Translations under genes and position numbers: made by a program | Shown: in pieces, positions 25,477 through 60,371 of the stretch | How positions within the stretch are numbered: the first letter of the stretch is position 1 | Layout of the letters: every line of letters starts with the position of its first letter | Notes under the pieces: model-generated | Database searches by the model: none | The model's input: the letters and a program-made list of their open reading frames with translations, nothing else | Told to the model about the DNA's origin: nothing | NCBI GenBank assembly: GCA_964652605.1 | Contig: CAZZBH010000004.1 | Coordinates: 310 to 64,309, forward strand | DNA from: an uncultured Planctomycetaceae bacterium | Lineage (GTDB): Bacteria; Planctomycetota; UBA8742; UBA2392 | Direction of reading: 5' to 3' | DNA: 64,000 bases

Positions 25477-26262
25477 ATGGGACGCGGCTACTACGAACTG
25501 ATTGAAGCACCAAGCGACGAACTTGGCGGGAAGTCCGGCCCCAAGGCCATCTTTACGGCGCGGTTCATCGGGAAGTGGGACGAGCCTCAGCGACCGTACA
25601 CCGTCGCCAATGAGACAATCGCCGCGGCGATTGGAACCGCGTTGGGGTTGCCCATAGCACCCGGGATTACGGACGAGATTGGTGGGAAGCCTTATTTCCT
25701 CAGCCAAGAGTTGCACAAGCCTGGCGACAAGCAAGTTGGGCCGGAGGGCGGAGCTCCTGCAGTGGAGAAGCTTCTAAGCAACAACCAGCTTCTGGTACAT
25801 GGAGCGATCATCTTTGATCTCTACATCGCCAACAATGACCGCGGCTTCCTGCCTGACCGCCGCAACATCGCGGTAGATGCCGATGGTCGACTGTTTCTCT
25901 ACGATCACGGCAACTGCTGCTTCTACAGGAATCGCGATTCGGAAGGAATTGTCGCTGGTGTCAGTAGGTTGGAGGCAGTTGAGGCGTCTCTGGATGCCAT
26001 GTTTGACATGGGCAGCAAACCCAACATGTACTGGGAGCTACTGACCGATATCAAGATGGCAGACTTCTGGTTGAACCGGCTGGAGATGATACCCGATTTC
26101 ATGTTGGACGCGTTTGTGAGCATGATCCCATCTGCAGTGGACCCGCCCAATGAACACGAGCGCAAAGCTCTGGCGGAGTTTCTTAAGAAGAGGCGGCACT
26201 ATCTGCGAGAGCACATCTTGGCCGACAAGAAGCACTTCCCCATGCTGGGAGGACGAGAATGA
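25477..26262 (+). CDS. Atypical kinase-like protein (HipA / PI3K-PI4K-like catalytic motifs)
   Basis: FDLYIANNDRGFLPDRRNIAVD (catalytic-loop-like D...N) and LFLYDHGNC (DxG-like metal site). GC is ~50-55% against a ~65% background. The gene starts 9 nt after the tldD stop. Confidence 0.7.
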   Translation: MGRGYYELIEAPSDELGGKSGPKAIFTARFIGKWDEPQRPYTVANETIAAAIGTALGLPIAPGITDEIGGKPYFLSQELHKPGDKQVGPEGGAPAVEKLLSNNQLLVHGAIIFDLYIANNDRGFLPDRRNIAVDADGRLFLYDHGNCCFYRNRDSEGIVAGVSRLEAVEASLDAMFDMGSKPNMYWELLTDIKMADFWLNRLEMIPDFMLDAFVSMIPSAVDPPNEHERKALAEFLKKRRHYLREHILADKKHFPMLGGRE

Positions 26263-27113
26263 CCCAACGAGACTTCACATATGCGTTGCTTCGATATGTG
26301 CCAGATCCAGAACGTATGGAACCTCTGAACTTTGGTGTCGTTGTCCAAGGCACACAAGGTATGAGGCTCAAGCTGAACACGTACTTTGGTCAGCTGGGCA
26401 TGGTTGACGCGAAGGTGTATCGGAAGTGGCGCGAGTTTCTGGAAGAAGAAGTAGAAGGTGAACAGAAATCGATCTTCAGGCCGTCCCGCGACTCGGCGGA
26501 CTTCTGGAAATATCTCCGGTCACTAACCGGCGACACTGTCATAATGACTTCGCCACTCAAGATGGCTACATCGGACGAAGTCGAACTGGAGCAGGTCGTA
26601 GTGCGGTTATACGACAGGCTGGTGAACCGCAAATCCTCAGACAAAGACACTTCGCGGGGGCGTCCAGGCAATCCCACATTCGAGTTCAGGCGTATTCGCG
26701 ATGACAGAAAATTGGACAAGCGTGGTTTGCTGAGAGGGCATGGGGTGCGGAGTAGCGGCGGCGAAATTCTTTGGACACCGTACCGTGCATTCGAGAACGG
26801 ACACCGTGTAGCTATCAATAAGGTTGAGGTCAATCGAGACCCGGAGTTAACCAATGCAGAGATTGGGACTGCGAAGTATGTGGCTAGCATTGGAGAGCAA
26901 ATTCGCAAGCTCGGCGTACGCTGGGTCATAATGTTCGATCCACTCGACGAACCCCTTCCCGGGCAGGATGCAGAGGCGTTTCGGGACATGAAGGATGCGC
27001 TGGAGTCTTCGCGAAGTCATGCGTTGGCAGCAAAAGCCAACGTTCTATCCAGTGCAGCCGAGGTACAGGACTTTGTGGTGGACATTGAAGGCAGCCTCCA
27101 ACCGATGGCATGA
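26259..27113 (+). CDS. DUF3037-like protein (N-terminal) with uncharacterised C-terminal extension
   Basis: ATGA overlap with the upstream kinase gene. The N-terminus FTYALLRYVPDPERMEPLNFGVVVQG matches my recollection of the DUF3037 signature. GC is low. Confidence 0.7.
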   Translation: MTQRDFTYALLRYVPDPERMEPLNFGVVVQGTQGMRLKLNTYFGQLGMVDAKVYRKWREFLEEEVEGEQKSIFRPSRDSADFWKYLRSLTGDTVIMTSPLKMATSDEVELEQVVVRLYDRLVNRKSSDKDTSRGRPGNPTFEFRRIRDDRKLDKRGLLRGHGVRSSGGEILWTPYRAFENGHRVAINKVEVNRDPELTNAEIGTAKYVASIGEQIRKLGVRWVIMFDPLDEPLPGQDAEAFRDMKDALESSRSHALAAKANVLSSAAEVQDFVVDIEGSLQPMA

Positions 27114-27179
27114 GGTCCAATGCCCAGGGCGCTCGCTTACGCTTCGCGTTCGGACTTGTGGATTGCTATCCTTGGCTTC

Positions 27180-28352
27180 ATGAAAACTCTTGCGCTGGTA
27201 CTTCTGGTGGCTTTTGGGTCTGGGCTTTGGGCTGGCGAGACGCTTCCGGCTGGGCCGCCTTGGGAGCGTGATTTCATGAAGGCGCATGCCTCGGCGCTTG
27301 AGGCTGGCAAGCCGATCTTCCTTTACTTCACCAAGACCTACTGACCGCACTGTGTTCCCGTGGAACGGGAACTCCTGCCCAACGCCGAGCTGAAGCCGGT
27401 GTATGAGGACATTGTCTGGGTGTTCGTCTACAACGACTTCAAAGGCGGCGAGGCGGACCTGGCGGCGGACCGCGTCCGCAAGCGCTTCAACGTGTCCACC
27501 TGGCCGCAACTGCTGATCGCGGACCCCAACACGCTCGAAGTCATCGGCGACACCGGGCGCAGCGTGAAGACCTTCCTGCCCGCGGTCAGCAAAGCCAAGG
27601 CCGCAGTCAGCAAGCTCGACAAGAAGGCGCAGAAAGAAGTGCGCGAGAAGCTCGAAGAGGCTGAGGCGTTCGCCGCACGGCTCCAAACCAAGCCCAACAA
27701 GCGCGACCTGCAGAAAGCGTTGGAGCACGAGGATGTAGTGGTGCTTGCCGTCGCGGTCGAGTACGCGGTCAAGGAGGACCCGGCGCTGCTGTACGAGTCG
27801 GCACTCAAGCTGCTCGACAACACCTCAGACCAGATTCGCACCGCCGTCTGCGAAGCGATTGCCAAAGCAGGCGACAAGGCGAAGCTGGATGACGACCTGC
27901 GCGTGCGGCTTGAAGGGCTGGTGCGCGAGCCGAAGGATAGCCGCAACCCCAACGTGCTGCGCATCCGCGCGGTCGGCGCGCTGGCCCGCTGCGGCAACGC
28001 GGATTCGCTGGACGTGCTGAAGCCGTTTGCCACCGCGAAAGACGTTTACAACGGGCTGACCTCGACGGCAGTGAACGCGGTCGGCACGATCGGCCTGCGC
28101 GAGAAGGCGGGACGGAATGACGCCATCGCGATCCTGGTGGACAGCTTTCCTGCGATTGCGGCGGATGACCCCAAGCGCGCCGAGTCTTTCGCCCGCGTGG
28201 CGCCGCAGCTTGCGCGCACGGTGCACAAGCACCTCGAAGCGCTGACCCGCGCCAAGGTGGCGTTCCCTGCCAAGTACGACGAAGACGGCCGCAACAAGAT
28301 GATCGAGGCCTTCAGCAAGTACGTGAAAGATTCGACGACGGCAGGCGACTGA
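27180..28352 (+). CDS. Secreted thioredoxin-fold (Thioredoxin_7-like) + HEAT-repeat protein; predicted selenoprotein with Sec (UGA) at 27342..27344
   Basis: ORFs 27120..27344 and 27360..28352 share one frame. The junction reads FLYFTKTY-U-PHC-VPVEREL at the WCxxC position, with a hairpin at 27354..27372. Signal peptide MKTLALVLLVAFGSGLWAGE from ATG 27180; HEAT-like repeats lie C-terminal. Confidence 0.8.
27354..27372 (+). promoter_or_regulatory. Candidate bacterial SECIS hairpin
   Basis: GUUCCCG-UGGAA-CGGGAAC is a perfect 7-bp stem with a 5-nt G-containing loop, starting 9 nt after UGA 27342..27344. Confidence 0.65.
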
Positions 28353-28502
28353 TCGCCGGTTGCTGGCTGGCGCACGGCGCAATGCAATACGTGTGCGACC
28401 GCCTTACCGGCAGCGTGTTCGCACCCCAATGCGCACGAGGCTCAGCGAGAACGCCTGGGAATCGATGCACCGGTTTGAGTCGGGCGACCGCTCAAGCGGA
28501 GT

Positions 28503-30359
28503 TCAAGGCGCGAAGTGCAGCACAACGGCGGGATCCCTGGTACTGGCAACCAAAAACGGGTTTTGCTCGGCAGCGGCTTGGGGGCCGCACAGGCGGGCGC
28601 ACTGGTCGCGGCGCTGCTGCTGTTGCGCGGCGGTGAGCGGCACGTCACTGTGCCTGTAGATCACACGCCCTAGTTGCTCAGGGCTCATGGTCATGCCCGT
28701 GAAGCGCACGCCGGGGCGGTCAAGCCGGCCCGTAATCTCGGCCTGCACCGGTGTATCGCCTGCACTTGCCATCAGCATCCCGCGCAGCGTGGCGTGGCGC
28801 GGGTGCACGTCGCGATGCATTTCAATGCGCGCGTCCACACTTCCCGTCAGGCCCAGAAACAGCAATTCGCCGTCCTTCATTTCCAGGCTGCCCTCCGCGC
28901 GCACATTGCCCGAGCGATTCTCCGGGCGCTTGGTGAAGTCACCCCGCAACTTGCCGCGCGCGACGCCGCGCACCGGGTCGCAGTTGACTTCAAGCCGTCG
29001 CACGTCGGCTTGCCACTCCAGCGTCAGGGCCGGAAACTGCTCTCCCAGCATCACGATGTTCGGCGTCAGGTCAGACAGGCCCGTGCGGTTCGCGCGCACC
29101 CAACTGATCGGCTCATTCAGTGTTGCCTCTCGCACAGTCGCGTCGAAGGTGCCGCGCAGGTCATCGACCGGCCCGTTGAGCACCAGCTCGCCGGCGCCGC
29201 GGGCCTTGCACCGCGGGTTGGTGGACAGTGTGCAGTCGTCCGCGCGCAGTGTCAGGTCACTGAAGCTCCAGGCTGTGCCGCCTTGCAGCCGCAGGTCGCC
29301 TGACAGGTCAGCCTCCGGCAACTCAAACGCGCGCGTTGCATCAAGGCCCATCACCAGCGGGTAGTAGTAGCTGACACCAGACAGCTCACAACTCAGTTCA
29401 AGCCGCAGGTCGTTCAGCTCACCGCTCACGCGGCAAGTGCCACGCAGCGCGCCTTCAAGCACGTCCACCTTGCGATAGCGGCCCCACAACTCCTTCAGCT
29501 CAAGGTGGTCGAGAGTGCACAGCAGCGAGCTTTCACCGCCCGGTGTCAGCGAGCCCATGAGCGCGCCCTGCACCAAACCGTCGGTCTGAAACGCAATGTT
29601 GGTGACGACTTCGAGCCCCGATCCCGCCTGCCGCACCGCCACGCCGCCCATCATCGTCAGCTCATGTCGCACGCCGAGCAGCGTGACGCTACCGCGAGAC
29701 AGCCCAAGGCTGAACTCGTCGCGAAGGCCGCCCAACGAACCCTCGGCGTGGCTGAACTCAAATTCCGCTGCGGTGTCGTCGCCCTTCAGCGCAATGCTTC
29801 CGTCCCGCACGCTGATCACGACCGGTGAGGCGGATTCGCGCGGGCGGGCAAGAAAGCGCTCAAGCTTTCCCCCGGCTGGATCAAACTCCGCCGTCAGGCC
29901 CTGCACAGCTACCATGGCTGGGCCGGTGCGCAGAAACAGGCCCAGGCCCGGATTGATCTCAAGCGTGCGCGCCTCGACGTGGCCGACGTCGTCGGGCAAC
30001 TGTACGCTGACGCCGGTAAACAGCAGCTTTCCGGTCGCGGCGTCACCGCTGAAGCCGGTGTACTCGATCGGCCCGCCCAGCGCGGCTTCAAGGCTCTGCA
30101 ATGCCTGCGAGCGGCCCCAGTCAAGCCACGGGTTCGCGCCCGCTGCTGAGGCAAGCCAGCAGGCGGCGATCCCGCCAAAGGCGGCATAAGCCGTCGGTCG
30201 CAGGCGTTTGAACCACGGCAACGCAGCCGGCACCACGATCACCGCCGCGAACGCGCCGAATACAAAGGCCAGCGGCGCAAGCAGCAATCCGGCTGCCACC
30301 GGCACTACCGGCAGCTTTCGTTTGGCCGGGGTTTCGGATGTCGTTGTGCGGTCTTCCAT
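28503..30359 (-). CDS. Hypothetical membrane-anchored beta-rich protein (AsmA/TamB-like by composition)
   Basis: 618-aa ORF with N-terminal TM helices (VVPVAAGLLLAPLAFVFGAFAAVIVV) followed by long repetitive beta-like segments. The family assignment is only an impression. Confidence 0.6.
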   Translation of the reverse strand: MEDRTTTSETPAKRKLPVVPVAAGLLLAPLAFVFGAFAAVIVVPAALPWFKRLRPTAYAAFGGIAACWLASAAGANPWLDWGRSQALQSLEAALGGPIEYTGFSGDAATGKLLFTGVSVQLPDDVGHVEARTLEINPGLGLFLRTGPAMVAVQGLTAEFDPAGGKLERFLARPRESASPVVISVRDGSIALKGDDTAAEFEFSHAEGSLGGLRDEFSLGLSRGSVTLLGVRHELTMMGGVAVRQAGSGLEVVTNIAFQTDGLVQGALMGSLTPGGESSLLCTLDHLELKELWGRYRKVDVLEGALRGTCRVSGELNDLRLELSCELSGVSYYYPLVMGLDATRAFELPEADLSGDLRLQGGTAWSFSDLTLRADDCTLSTNPRCKARGAGELVLNGPVDDLRGTFDATVREATLNEPISWVRANRTGLSDLTPNIVMLGEQFPALTLEWQADVRRLEVNCDPVRGVARGKLRGDFTKRPENRSGNVRAEGSLEMKDGELLFLGLTGSVDARIEMHRDVHPRHATLRGMLMASAGDTPVQAEITGRLDRPGVRFTGMTMSPEQLGRVIYRHSDVPLTAAQQQQRRDQCARLCGPQAAAEQNPFLVASTRDPAVVLHFAP

Positions 30360-59306: not shown

Positions 59307-60371
59307 TCAGCGCGTGACCGTGATGCGGCCGGCACTGCCGGCAGTGACTTCACCGATCACCGAAGCTGCCAGTGCGTTGTGTTGCTTCAGACTGGCGACC
59401 AGGGCATCGCACTTGTCGGATGGCACGCTGATGACCATGCCGCCGCTGGTCTGCGCGTCGCACACCAGCAACTGTTCTTCGTGCGTCAGCCCCTCGGCGA
59501 AATCGATCCACTGCCTGAAGTACAGCCAGTTCTTCTTCGTGCCGCCGGGGAAGCAGCCCTGCTTCAGCAATTCCATGACTTCCGGCAGAACTGGCAGTGC
59601 ATCGAAGTGCAGCTTCATGCTCACGCCGCTCGCGTGGGCCACCTCGTGCAAGTGGCCCGCAAGGCCATACCCGGTGATGTCCGTGGCGGCACTGGCGCCG
59701 ACTTCATGAATGGCTTCGCCGCCCGGCCGATTGATCGCGGCCATGGACTGGATAGCCGGCTCAATCTGCGCTTCTGTGCGTAGTTCGCGTTTCACGGCGG
59801 TCGTCAGCACGCCTACACCCAGCGGCTTGGTAAGCACAAGCTTATCGCCCGCCTTGGCGCCGCTGTTGGACATGATCTTCTTCGGGTGCACGACGCCGGT
59901 GACGCACATGCCGTACTTCGGCTCGGCATCGTCGATCGAGTGCCCGCCGACGACAAAGATGCCGGCTTCGCCCGCCTTGTCCGCGCCCCCCTTGAGAATG
60001 GTCGCCAGCACGTCATGTCCAAGCTGCGCCAAGGGGAAGCCCACGATGTTCAGTGCGAAGATCGGCTTGGCGCCCATGGCGTAGATGTCGGAGATGGCAT
60101 TGGCGGCGGCGATCTGGCCGAACAGGTACGGGTCGTCCACGATCGGCGTGAAGAAATCCAGTGTCTGCACGACGGCCTGTTCGTCGTTCAATTGGTACAC
60201 GCAGGCATCATCGGCCCACTCGTGCCCGACAAGCACGCGGGGGTCGGTAACCTTCGGCAAACCTTGCAGGACCTGCCCGAGGTCGCTGGCTGAAAGTTTG
60301 CAGCCTCACCCGGCGCCGTGAGATAGCTGGGTGAGCCTTGGTTTGCCGTCTTTGGTCTGTGTTGTGGCCAT
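59307..60371 (-). CDS. selD: Selenide, water dikinase (selenophosphate synthetase) SelD, Sec-containing form (UGA at 60306..60308)
   Basis: From ATG 60371: [49 protein letters not shown]..., which aligns with E. coli LTQYSHGAGCGCKISPKVL. The rest is canonical (DFFTPIVDDPYLFGQIAAANAISDIYAMGAKP). Confidence 0.9.
60267..60288 (-). promoter_or_regulatory. Candidate SECIS hairpin of selD
   Basis: The RNA CAG(C)GACCU-CGGGC-AGGUCCUG forms 8 bp with one bulge and a G-rich loop, starting 18 nt after the UGA. An alternative 5-bp hairpin, GGCUG-N8-CAGCC, lies immediately after the UGA. Confidence 0.45.

Follow-up and report, generated by a model that had tools for sequence, protein, structure and literature searches.

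A Predicted Exported Selenoprotein with a U-P-H-C Thioredoxin-Fold Center Fused to HEAT Repeats in Planctomycetota

A Predicted Selenoprotein Gene Interrupted by an In-Frame UGA

In a 64,000-nt stretch of contig CAZZBH010000004.1 from an uncultured Planctomycetaceae bacterium (hereafter, the window, at its full length), a gene at 27180..28352 on the forward strand is predicted to encode a selenoprotein that combines a signal peptide, a thioredoxin-fold redox domain, and HEAT repeats. Its coding sequence comprises 390 codons and a TGA stop (28350-28352) and is predicted to be read through an in-frame UGA (27342..27344, forward strand) as selenocysteine (Sec) at residue 55. Sec55 would be the first residue of a U-P-H-C redox motif (Sec55-Pro-His-Cys58; 27342..27353, forward strand). 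From comparison of sequences, we hold with high confidence that this is a genuine selenoprotein gene, and a single gene for an exported selenoprotein, read through its UGA, is very probably the best explanation of the observations as a whole. A preliminary description of this DNA had proposed that two adjacent open reading frames (ORFs), 27120..27344 and 27360..28352, form one gene for a thioredoxin-fold and HEAT-repeat selenoprotein, and 75 homologous loci support that proposal.

Inspection of the sequence places the two ORFs in one shared reading frame, separated by the TGA at 27342-27344 and five sense codons (CCG CAC TGT GTT CCC), exactly as described. With the stop unread, the junction is KPIFLYFTKTY-*-PHCVPVERELLPNAELKPVYEDIVWVFVYND (asterisk, stop), and when read through it is KPIFLYFTKTY-U-PHC-VPVERELLPNAELKPVYEDIVWVFVYND. 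The UGA occupies the position of the first Cys of the redox motif and the second Cys codon (TGT, 27351-27353) is kept, confirming what had been noted for this site. The frame of the upstream ORF was correctly recognized, and its start needs a minor correction; translation is predicted to begin at ATG 27180 (MKT...) rather than at ATG 27120, because an MKT start is common to homologs. The predicted precursor has a mass of 42.7 kDa, or ~40.8 kDa once the signal peptide is removed. UGA is the commonest ordinary stop in the window, ending 9 of 16 large ORFs, the selenoprotein gene itself included, and its ordinary use elsewhere in the window thus argues against a genome-wide reassignment. The four closest relatives are split by gene callers in the same manner, with a small ORF ending 15 nt upstream of the called gene, and a short member of the family (MBK8976677.1) is publicly named "HEAT repeat domain-containing protein" (NCBI).

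Conservation across the UGA

The read-through protein, used as a search query, returned 34 relatives of two length classes, those of ~370-413 aa with Thioredoxin_7 and HEAT_2 domains and those of ~300-337 aa with HEAT_2 only. In the alignment, every short relative has as its start an internal residue (V, M, or L) a few positions past the motif. Twelve full-length proteins (P0003-5, P0010-18, and P0031 cited) have Cys at the UGA column, in the context TKTY-C-PHC, and a 13th (P0008) has Cys at this column in a CPAS motif. DNA was fetched for 42 loci in species genomes of GTDB, nearly all metagenome-assembled genomes (MAGs) of Planctomycetota, as well as for 32 metagenome loci and seven contigs of the closest relatives. 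With the window included, 75 loci cover the motif, again almost all from Planctomycetota MAGs. The codon at the UGA column is TGA in 67 loci and TGT or TGC in the other 8. In all 75, the frame continues through this codon with conserved peptide on either side (GPPW..KPIF.YFTKTY-U-PHCV..E..LLP). Homologs that end at the UGA were looked for and none was found among these informative loci, while homologs that align Cys to the UGA, likewise looked for, are present both as the TKTY-C-PHC proteins and as the eight TGT/TGC loci. The U-P-H-C motif is found in 67 of 67 Sec loci; Cys forms have CPHC, except for one CPNC and one CPAS. An exhaustive hidden Markov model search of 1.84 billion cluster representatives identified 103 clusters at E <= 1e-30, of whose representatives 59 start directly after the motif, about 7-12 have full length and CxxC, and a few are redox-dead. 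Taken as a whole, the comparative evidence is far beyond chance.

These patterns bear on whether the locus is instead two genes, with translation stopping at UGA 27342 to yield a 54-aa secreted peptide and a HEAT protein made independently from GTG 27360. Gene callers annotate such an arrangement (e.g., P0001 and MBK8976677.1), and some termination at the UGA is expected under selenium scarcity. Yet all 67 loci with the UGA keep the frame through it, the full-length Cys homologs are single proteins, and the downstream start is not conserved, being V, M, or L at varying codons across callers. In the window, GTG 27360 falls within the RNA hairpin described below. A split would also break the thioredoxin fold between beta1 and helix 1, at the active site, and the downstream product would be without a signal peptide. 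From the sequences, the two-gene arrangement is thus very unlikely. A pseudogene, or a sequencing or assembly error that produced a premature stop, is more improbable still: only the in-frame stop itself speaks for it, while 67 independent loci, drawn from different MAGs and metagenomes, all have TGA at this codon, the downstream sequence is intact and conserved, and there is constraint at the local RNA level. This explanation is ruled out by the comparative data.

A Candidate SECIS Hairpin in the Window

The window has a perfect 7-bp hairpin, GTTCCCG-TGGAA-CGGGAAC, that begins 9 nt past the TGA. By predicted fold and published criteria, it is a candidate bacterial Sec insertion sequence (SECIS; GUUCCCG-UGGAA-CGGGAAC, 27354..27372, forward strand). 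ViennaRNA adds a closing U-A pair, for a total of 8 bp and a loop of GGA. Bacterial SECIS are expected to have a loop of 3-9 nt, an upper stem of 4-16 bp, a G in loop positions 1-2, a distance of 16-37 nt from the UGA, and a minimum free energy <= -7.5 kcal/mol (PMC13188914). The hairpin passes all four criteria (8 bp, spacing of 16-17 nt, and -13.5 kcal/mol), and its loop, U-GGA-A, fits the pattern N1-G-[G/U]-N-N2. The same 19 nt are identical in loci L075-L078, whose proteins are 49-85% identical. Codons of the hairpin are the same at 6 of 6 positions in these loci, relative to a background of 0.56-0.58, whereas flanking codons vary. Sister Cys forms (L079-L081) encode a near-identical peptide but share only 0-1 of 4-5 codons and have no hairpin; in L080, for example, VPVERD is written GTG CCC GTT GAG CGC GAC.

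Candidate SECIS Hairpins across the Family

Hairpins at the equivalent position separate Sec loci from Cys loci. The full SECIS criteria are passed by 64 of 67 Sec loci versus 2 of 8 Cys loci (Fisher p = 1e-5) and versus 129 of 420 (31%) control in-frame positions in genes of the window, where the DNA is 63% GC (p = 1.7e-25 for Sec loci against controls). The criteria are lax in DNA of this composition, but an uninterrupted upper stem of >=7 bp is seen at only 4 of the 420 control positions. The three Sec loci that fail share one and the same hairpin, GGAGC-AGUU-GCUCC, which at -7.1 kcal/mol narrowly misses the cutoff. Averaged over loci, the best hairpin has an energy of -11.7 kcal/mol in the Sec forms versus -6.6 kcal/mol in the Cys forms (Mann-Whitney p = 0.0016).

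A single 30-nt segment of the coding sequence carries, depending on the locus, one of at least three hairpins that cannot be superimposed (types A/A', B, and C); their pairing registers differ by 1 to 8 nt. Type B (43 loci; GAG-[AG]AG-CAG-UUG-CU[UC]-CC) has the loop AGUU at 25 nt from the UGA, and type C (15 loci; GGAGAGG-GGUCU-CCUCUCC) has the loop GGUCU at 24 nt. Type A (the window and L075-L078; GUUCCCG-UGGAA-CGGGAAC) has the loop UGGAA (GGA) at 16-17 nt, and type A' (L038, L069, and L070; GUCCCGC-UGGA-GCGGGAC) has the loop UGGA at 16 nt. In the type A' clade (~30% protein identity), the hairpin is located as in the window at 27354-27372, with its 5' arm slipped by 1 nt against an unchanged 3' arm. 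The likeness may reflect convergence, or an old hairpin may have changed register.

Type B hairpins show covariation. In alignment A3, pair 25-36 joins the first position of a Lys/Glu/Gln codon with the synonymous third position of a Leu codon; 20 sequences have A-U here, 17 have G-C, and 1 has C-G. Pair 21-39, formed between two synonymous third positions, is G-C in 20 sequences and C-G in 10. Double-change cells number 28, as against 10.3 +/- 4.8 in shuffled data (0 of 500 shuffles reach 28), and the pairing is lost upon sliding the register. In type C, there is a single compensatory change (G-C to C-G, in L035), and the rare codons AGG and GGT are held fixed. Two Cys forms nested in the type C clade have AAA-GGG-CTG-CTG and AAG-ACG-CTG-CTC in this segment and no stem. 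Synonymous constraint was measured along whole genes as the fraction of sequences with the top codon at conserved residues. This fraction is 0.85 in the hairpin versus 0.64 outside for type B (p = 0.008) and 0.96 versus 0.72 for type C (p = 0.0005), and in both it is raised solely at hairpin codons.

In a neighbor-joining tree, built without support values, hairpin types fall in clades and Cys forms lie inside Sec clades at no fewer than four places. This nesting suggests a history of sporadic Cys replacement, each with decay of the hairpin, and Sec appears ancestral in the family.

Selenocysteine Machinery

As had been reported, a Sec-type selD (selenophosphate synthetase) is located in the same window (59307..60371, reverse strand) and is itself a selenoprotein gene, with a UGA at 60306-60308. 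The motif of its product is SHGAG-U-GCK, with Sec at the position of E. coli Cys17. The product matches Pfam AIRS and AIRS_C, and in a tblastn comparison with E. coli SelD as query it is 43% identical (E = 1e-84). Because SelD itself contains Sec, a working Sec-decoding system is required. At 60 other homologous loci, neither tRNA-Sec, selA, nor selB is linked to the gene. A plain ORF call shortens selD to 59307-60260, and two hairpins follow the selD UGA.

The selD gene and the hairpins together address whether ribosomes read through the UGA without inserting Sec, by near-cognate insertion of Trp, Cys, or Arg or under a recoding signal unrelated to SelB. Termination is leaky at a UGA whose next base is C, and this is the context in all Sec loci. 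Furthermore, selD is the only part of the Sec machinery seen in the window. Conversely, the site is the catalytic Cys of CxxC and the sole alternative in the family is Cys, a classic Sec/Cys pair; the hairpins have the small G-containing loops and the spacing of bacterial SECIS; and Sec decoding is needed to make the SelD encoded in the window. A complete Sec machinery is also documented in planctomycetes (PMC4807772). Read-through with an amino acid other than Sec is therefore a very doubtful explanation, and recoding of the UGA as Sec is supported by the comparison of sequences.

Domains, Fold, and Signal Peptide

The protein is predicted to begin with a Sec-type signal peptide, MKTLALVLLVAFGSGLWA (residues 1-19; 27180..27236, forward strand), with the cleavage site read by eye before GETLPAGPPW. 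A signal peptide starting at ATG 27180 had been claimed, and homologs bear it out: in 67 of 70 read-through homologs, the N-terminus is signal-peptide-like (M-[KR]-hydrophobic-AxA-like) and is followed by a conserved GSETPPxGPPW. The mature N-terminus is strongly conserved in these homologs (GETLPAGPPW in the window, 27237-27269), which is unusual so near a cleavage site and may be functional.

Pfam was run on the read-through protein with Cys in place of the stop. Thioredoxin_7 (PF13899) matches residues 28-85 with 33 bits (cutoff of 27) and spans the UGA; together with the structural model, it defines a Thioredoxin_7-type thioredoxin-fold domain of residues ~28-142 (27261..27605, forward strand). 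Weak matches are also found to Thioredoxin_2 and Thioredoxin_8, and PF13098 scores 27.0 bits at a cutoff of 27. The domain had been assigned to a Thioredoxin_7/DUF255 type; the first half of this assignment holds, and the likeness to DUF255 is loose only. The C-terminal part matches HEAT_2 (PF13646; 30.2 bits, cutoff of 27.7) and, with the model, delimits a HEAT/alphaRep-like helical repeat domain of residues ~148-390 (27621..28349, forward strand), where HEAT-like repeats had been expected. A sequence-profile search of the PDB returned only alphaRep/HEAT proteins, down to E = 5e-18. The motifs SRNPNVLR and NGLT are invariant in the alignment of this domain, which suggests a defined binding surface.

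AlphaFold2 was applied, using the family alignment, to P0003, the nearest full-length Cys homolog (56% identical). The model has a predicted local distance difference test score (pLDDT) of 93 and a predicted template modeling score (pTM) of 0.88. In it, beta1 spans residues 46-52, C55-P-H-C58 is at the N-terminus of a helix (residues 58-65), and W108-P109 forms a cis-Pro-type loop ahead of beta3. From residue 148 on, the model is all-helical with pLDDT above 95. The high pTM suggests that in the model, the redox and HEAT domains are packed as one unit. In Foldseek searches against the PDB, the N-terminal domain matches ERp19/TXNDC12, AGR2/AGR3, DsbD-gamma, and the Thioredox_DsbH domain of Bab1_2064, the C-terminal domain matches alphaRep/HEAT proteins, and no match covers the whole protein. 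The fold of the redox domain is of the Thioredoxin_7/DsbD-gamma/ERp18-AGR type.

Long N-terminal extensions, for a total of 476-580 aa, are found in the Cys-form clade L025/L032 and in the cluster representatives P0051, P0067, and P0075.

Proposed Mechanism and Function

We propose that SelB, bound to Sec-tRNA(Sec), is brought to the UGA at 27342-27344 by the hairpin at 27354-27372, a SECIS located within the coding sequence. Sec would be inserted as residue 55 and the ribosome would go on to the true stop at 28350-28352. The product would then be exported via the Sec secretion pathway, directed by signal peptide residues 1-19. At the N-terminus of helix 1, Sec55 and Cys58 would cycle between the selenol/thiol and selenenylsulfide states. 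The HEAT solenoid, of ~240 residues, is predicted to pack on the redox domain and most likely holds a client or partner protein, on which the exported U-P-H-C center would perform selenol/thiol-disulfide exchange. Actual Sec insertion, export, thiol/selenol-disulfide exchange, and its direction are what we infer. That the protein is an exported redox protein is likely. An oxidase- or isomerase-like direction, acting on specific envelope clients, is put forward tentatively and by analogy, because P-H is the dipeptide of DsbA and the nearest folds are those of the protein disulfide isomerase (PDI)-family proteins ERp18 and AGR.

A serious rival, though one that we consider somewhat unlikely, is that the gene encodes a genuine selenoprotein with a DsbD-gamma/TlpA-like reductive or detoxifying role. 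The protein would be an envelope reductase like DsbD-gamma, TlpA, or CcmG, a peroxide- or methionine-sulfoxide-type reductase, or a Sec/Cys chelator of soft metals or chalcogens, and in each version the HEAT domain would dock an electron donor or cargo. Thioredoxin_7 includes DsbD-gamma, a reductant, whose structures are at Foldseek ranks 37-44, and the weak Pfam matches to Thioredoxin_2 and Thioredoxin_8 point the same way. Sec also usually favors fast nucleophilic or reductive chemistry. On the other side, P-H is a DsbA-type dipeptide and the most oxidizing CxxC context, the best single-domain fold matches are the PDI-family proteins ERp19 and AGR2/3, and neither a linked gene for a DsbD/CcdA-like electron donor nor conserved synteny is found. 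An antioxidant or reductive role is ascribed to the majority of predicted prokaryotic selenoproteins (PMC13188914), which counts for the reductant. None of the points against a reductant is decisive.

Observations That Weigh against an Exported Selenoprotein Oxidoreductase

Several observations count against reading the locus as an exported selenoprotein with an oxidative or isomerizing role, beginning with the window hairpin. Its spacing of 16-17 nt is at the low edge of the 16-37 nt range, and on its own it is not significant relative to dinucleotide shuffles (z = -1.8; 65-nt region). When synonymous codons of the 18-residue peptide were resampled with the codon usage of the window, ~10% of recodings folded into an equally or more stable hairpin. 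Rfam gives no match in this region, either when the whole window is scanned at gathering thresholds or at E <= 10 in 27300-27460, and contains no suitable bacterial SECIS model. The type A hairpin is invariant in its clade, so that it shows strong conservation and no covariation. Because the shuffle and recoding tests are not significant, we do not use this hairpin as stand-alone evidence, and its passing of the SECIS criteria is only suggestive by itself. The geometry claimed for it in the preliminary description stands; the weight it was given does not.

Other points concern the decoding machinery and the function. There is no selA, selB, or tRNA-Sec gene (selC) within the 64-kb window. The structural model is of P0003, the 56%-identical Cys homolog, and not of the window protein. 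Some divergent full-length relatives (P0103, P0117, P0062, and P0132) are redox-dead paralogs, with no Cys or Sec at the motif (e.g., YATQAGSPEGEIF and LRTQNSMSEQ), and their existence implies that the thioredoxin and HEAT scaffold can work without redox chemistry, suggesting a binding function that is independent of redox. Gene neighborhoods are not conserved: no cluster of neighbors is present in >5 loci once this gene and an antisense shadow ORF are excluded. Which way electrons flow is guessed by analogy, from the dipeptide and fold neighbors.

Relation to Known Families

In a 2026 table of 119 prokaryotic selenoprotein families, there is no matching entry. The papers on deep-Sep and BSepDB do not mention the family, and a literature search found no HEAT-fused or planctomycete thioredoxin-like selenoprotein that is specifically described. 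No NCBIfam selenoprotein model reaches its cutoff, with sub-threshold local matches only. The NCBIfam models and the 119-family table thus agree with the earlier statement that no secreted fusion of a Sec-containing thioredoxin domain and HEAT repeats had been described. The family might nonetheless be subsumed under an already known grouping in large surveys.

Most prokaryotic selenoproteins have a thioredoxin fold with UxxC or CxxU and a SECIS within the ORF (PMC13188914, PMC1088965). Like bacterial thioredoxin-fold UxxC selenoproteins, the protein has the N-terminal Sec of UxxC, Cys homologs, an in-ORF SECIS after the UGA, and a predicted envelope thiol-disulfide role. It differs from them in that its best Pfam match is Thioredoxin_7, it is fused to a 240-residue HEAT domain, and its family is almost confined to Planctomycetota and predominantly uses Sec, not Cys. 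The closest precedent in organization is NCBIfam NF041199 (Trx7/PDZ), in which an N-terminal Thioredoxin_7-type Sec/Cys domain is likewise fused to a protein-interaction domain. However, the match to NF041199 is weak and local, to the N-terminal 40 residues (14.7 bits versus a cutoff of 300). NF041199 has a CxxU motif, with Sec second, and a PDZ domain, unlike the UxxC motif and HEAT domain of the window protein, in which Pfam finds no PDZ match. The VPGUxxT thioredoxin-like model (NF041383) scores 21 bits versus a cutoff of 275, and the motif in the window is TKTY-U-PHC.

The P-H dipeptide alone is in common with DsbA. There is no match to the DsbA family (PF01323) at E <= 1, and no DsbA structure is among the top fold matches. 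The closest solved folds are ERp18/ERp19 (TXNDC12), AGR2/AGR3, and DsbD-gamma (Foldseek probability of 1.0; template modeling score to target of 0.52-0.63), which work in secretory or periplasmic compartments. These proteins are only 14-19% identical and are without Sec and HEAT repeats; the likeness is at the level of fold and does not fix function. AGR2 carries CPHS, which is near the CPHC/UPHC of the family and the CPAS variant of P0008. Relative to the SECIS of E. coli fdhF, all four bacterial SECIS criteria are likewise passed here and SelB recoding is predicted, but there is no sequence similarity, and the family has at least three hairpins over one segment. The loop of type C, GGUCU, resembles the GGUC loop of fdhF.

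Taken together, we lean slightly toward an undescribed, essentially Planctomycetota-specific family of exported U-P-H-C Thioredoxin_7 and HEAT proteins that is ancestrally Sec-dependent and whose SECIS was rebuilt three or more times in a single 30-nt segment. If so, ~80-90% of members would use Sec and the SECIS would have co-evolved with the encoded peptide (VPVERE, xE[KE]QLLP, and MERGLLS). Two loci, L034 (JBLIHL010000055.1) and L038 (CAZNUA010000058.1), are from MAGs labeled Paracoccaceae and Gemmatimonadota, respectively, and all others are Planctomycetota or unclassified. The two labels could be due to binning contamination or horizontal transfer.

Other Features of the Window

Two genes precede the selenoprotein gene on the forward strand, at 25477-26262 and 26259-27113. 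They overlap by 4 nt and the second ends 67 nt before the selenoprotein start. The gene at 26259-27113 matches DUF3037 (Pfam, 29.5 bits), and the gene at 25477-26262 has no family match. Neither is kept beside family members at other loci. Neighbors in the window include genes for TldD-like, DUF3037, and Lon proteins and one with a weak TamB-like match; they are not conserved across the family and thus give no functional clue. A promoter and terminator scan of 26900-28600 found nothing beyond chance level.

Three antisense ORFs overlap the selenoprotein gene on the reverse strand (27045..27728, 27428..28033, and 27825..28382), and a homologous antisense ORF is present again in 18 loci. Rather than a gene of its own, this antisense frame appears to be the GC-rich shadow of a conserved coding sequence. 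In a scan of the window for other UGA-interrupted ORFs with CxxU or UxxC, the selenoprotein gene and selD are the only credible ones; all others look like Arg-rich junk frames and were set aside. There is also an in-frame TGA at 1729-1731 on the forward strand (context ALNSFCGG-*-GIDC), followed by 279 open codons. It overlaps a reverse-strand ORF with a weak match to a MamO-like protease and is probably noise.

Implications

Nearly all public Sec-form members of the family are shortened to a signal-less "HEAT repeat domain-containing protein," leaving the redox domain unannotated. With a single family model, dozens to hundreds of entries would be corrected and the list of ~119 known families extended. 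Several hairpins over the same codons, with matched Cys controls, provide unusually clean data on the coding constraint imposed by a SECIS, and the family would be useful for training predictors of bacterial SECIS and selenoproteins. Knowledge of Sec decoding itself is unchanged and the finding is not surprising in principle. Its interest is to specialists and lies in the predominance of Sec, export with a HEAT fusion, and the turnover of SECIS in a fixed coding segment.

The observations indicate that many Planctomycetota place a Sec oxidoreductase in the envelope, for the most part keeping Sec over Cys. This retention implies that Sec is selectively advantageous and that these environmental bacteria require selenium. 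If the family is indeed undescribed and organized as we suggest, it would be a natural system for the co-evolution of SECIS and coding sequence and a marker of widespread selenium dependence in the planctomycete envelope.

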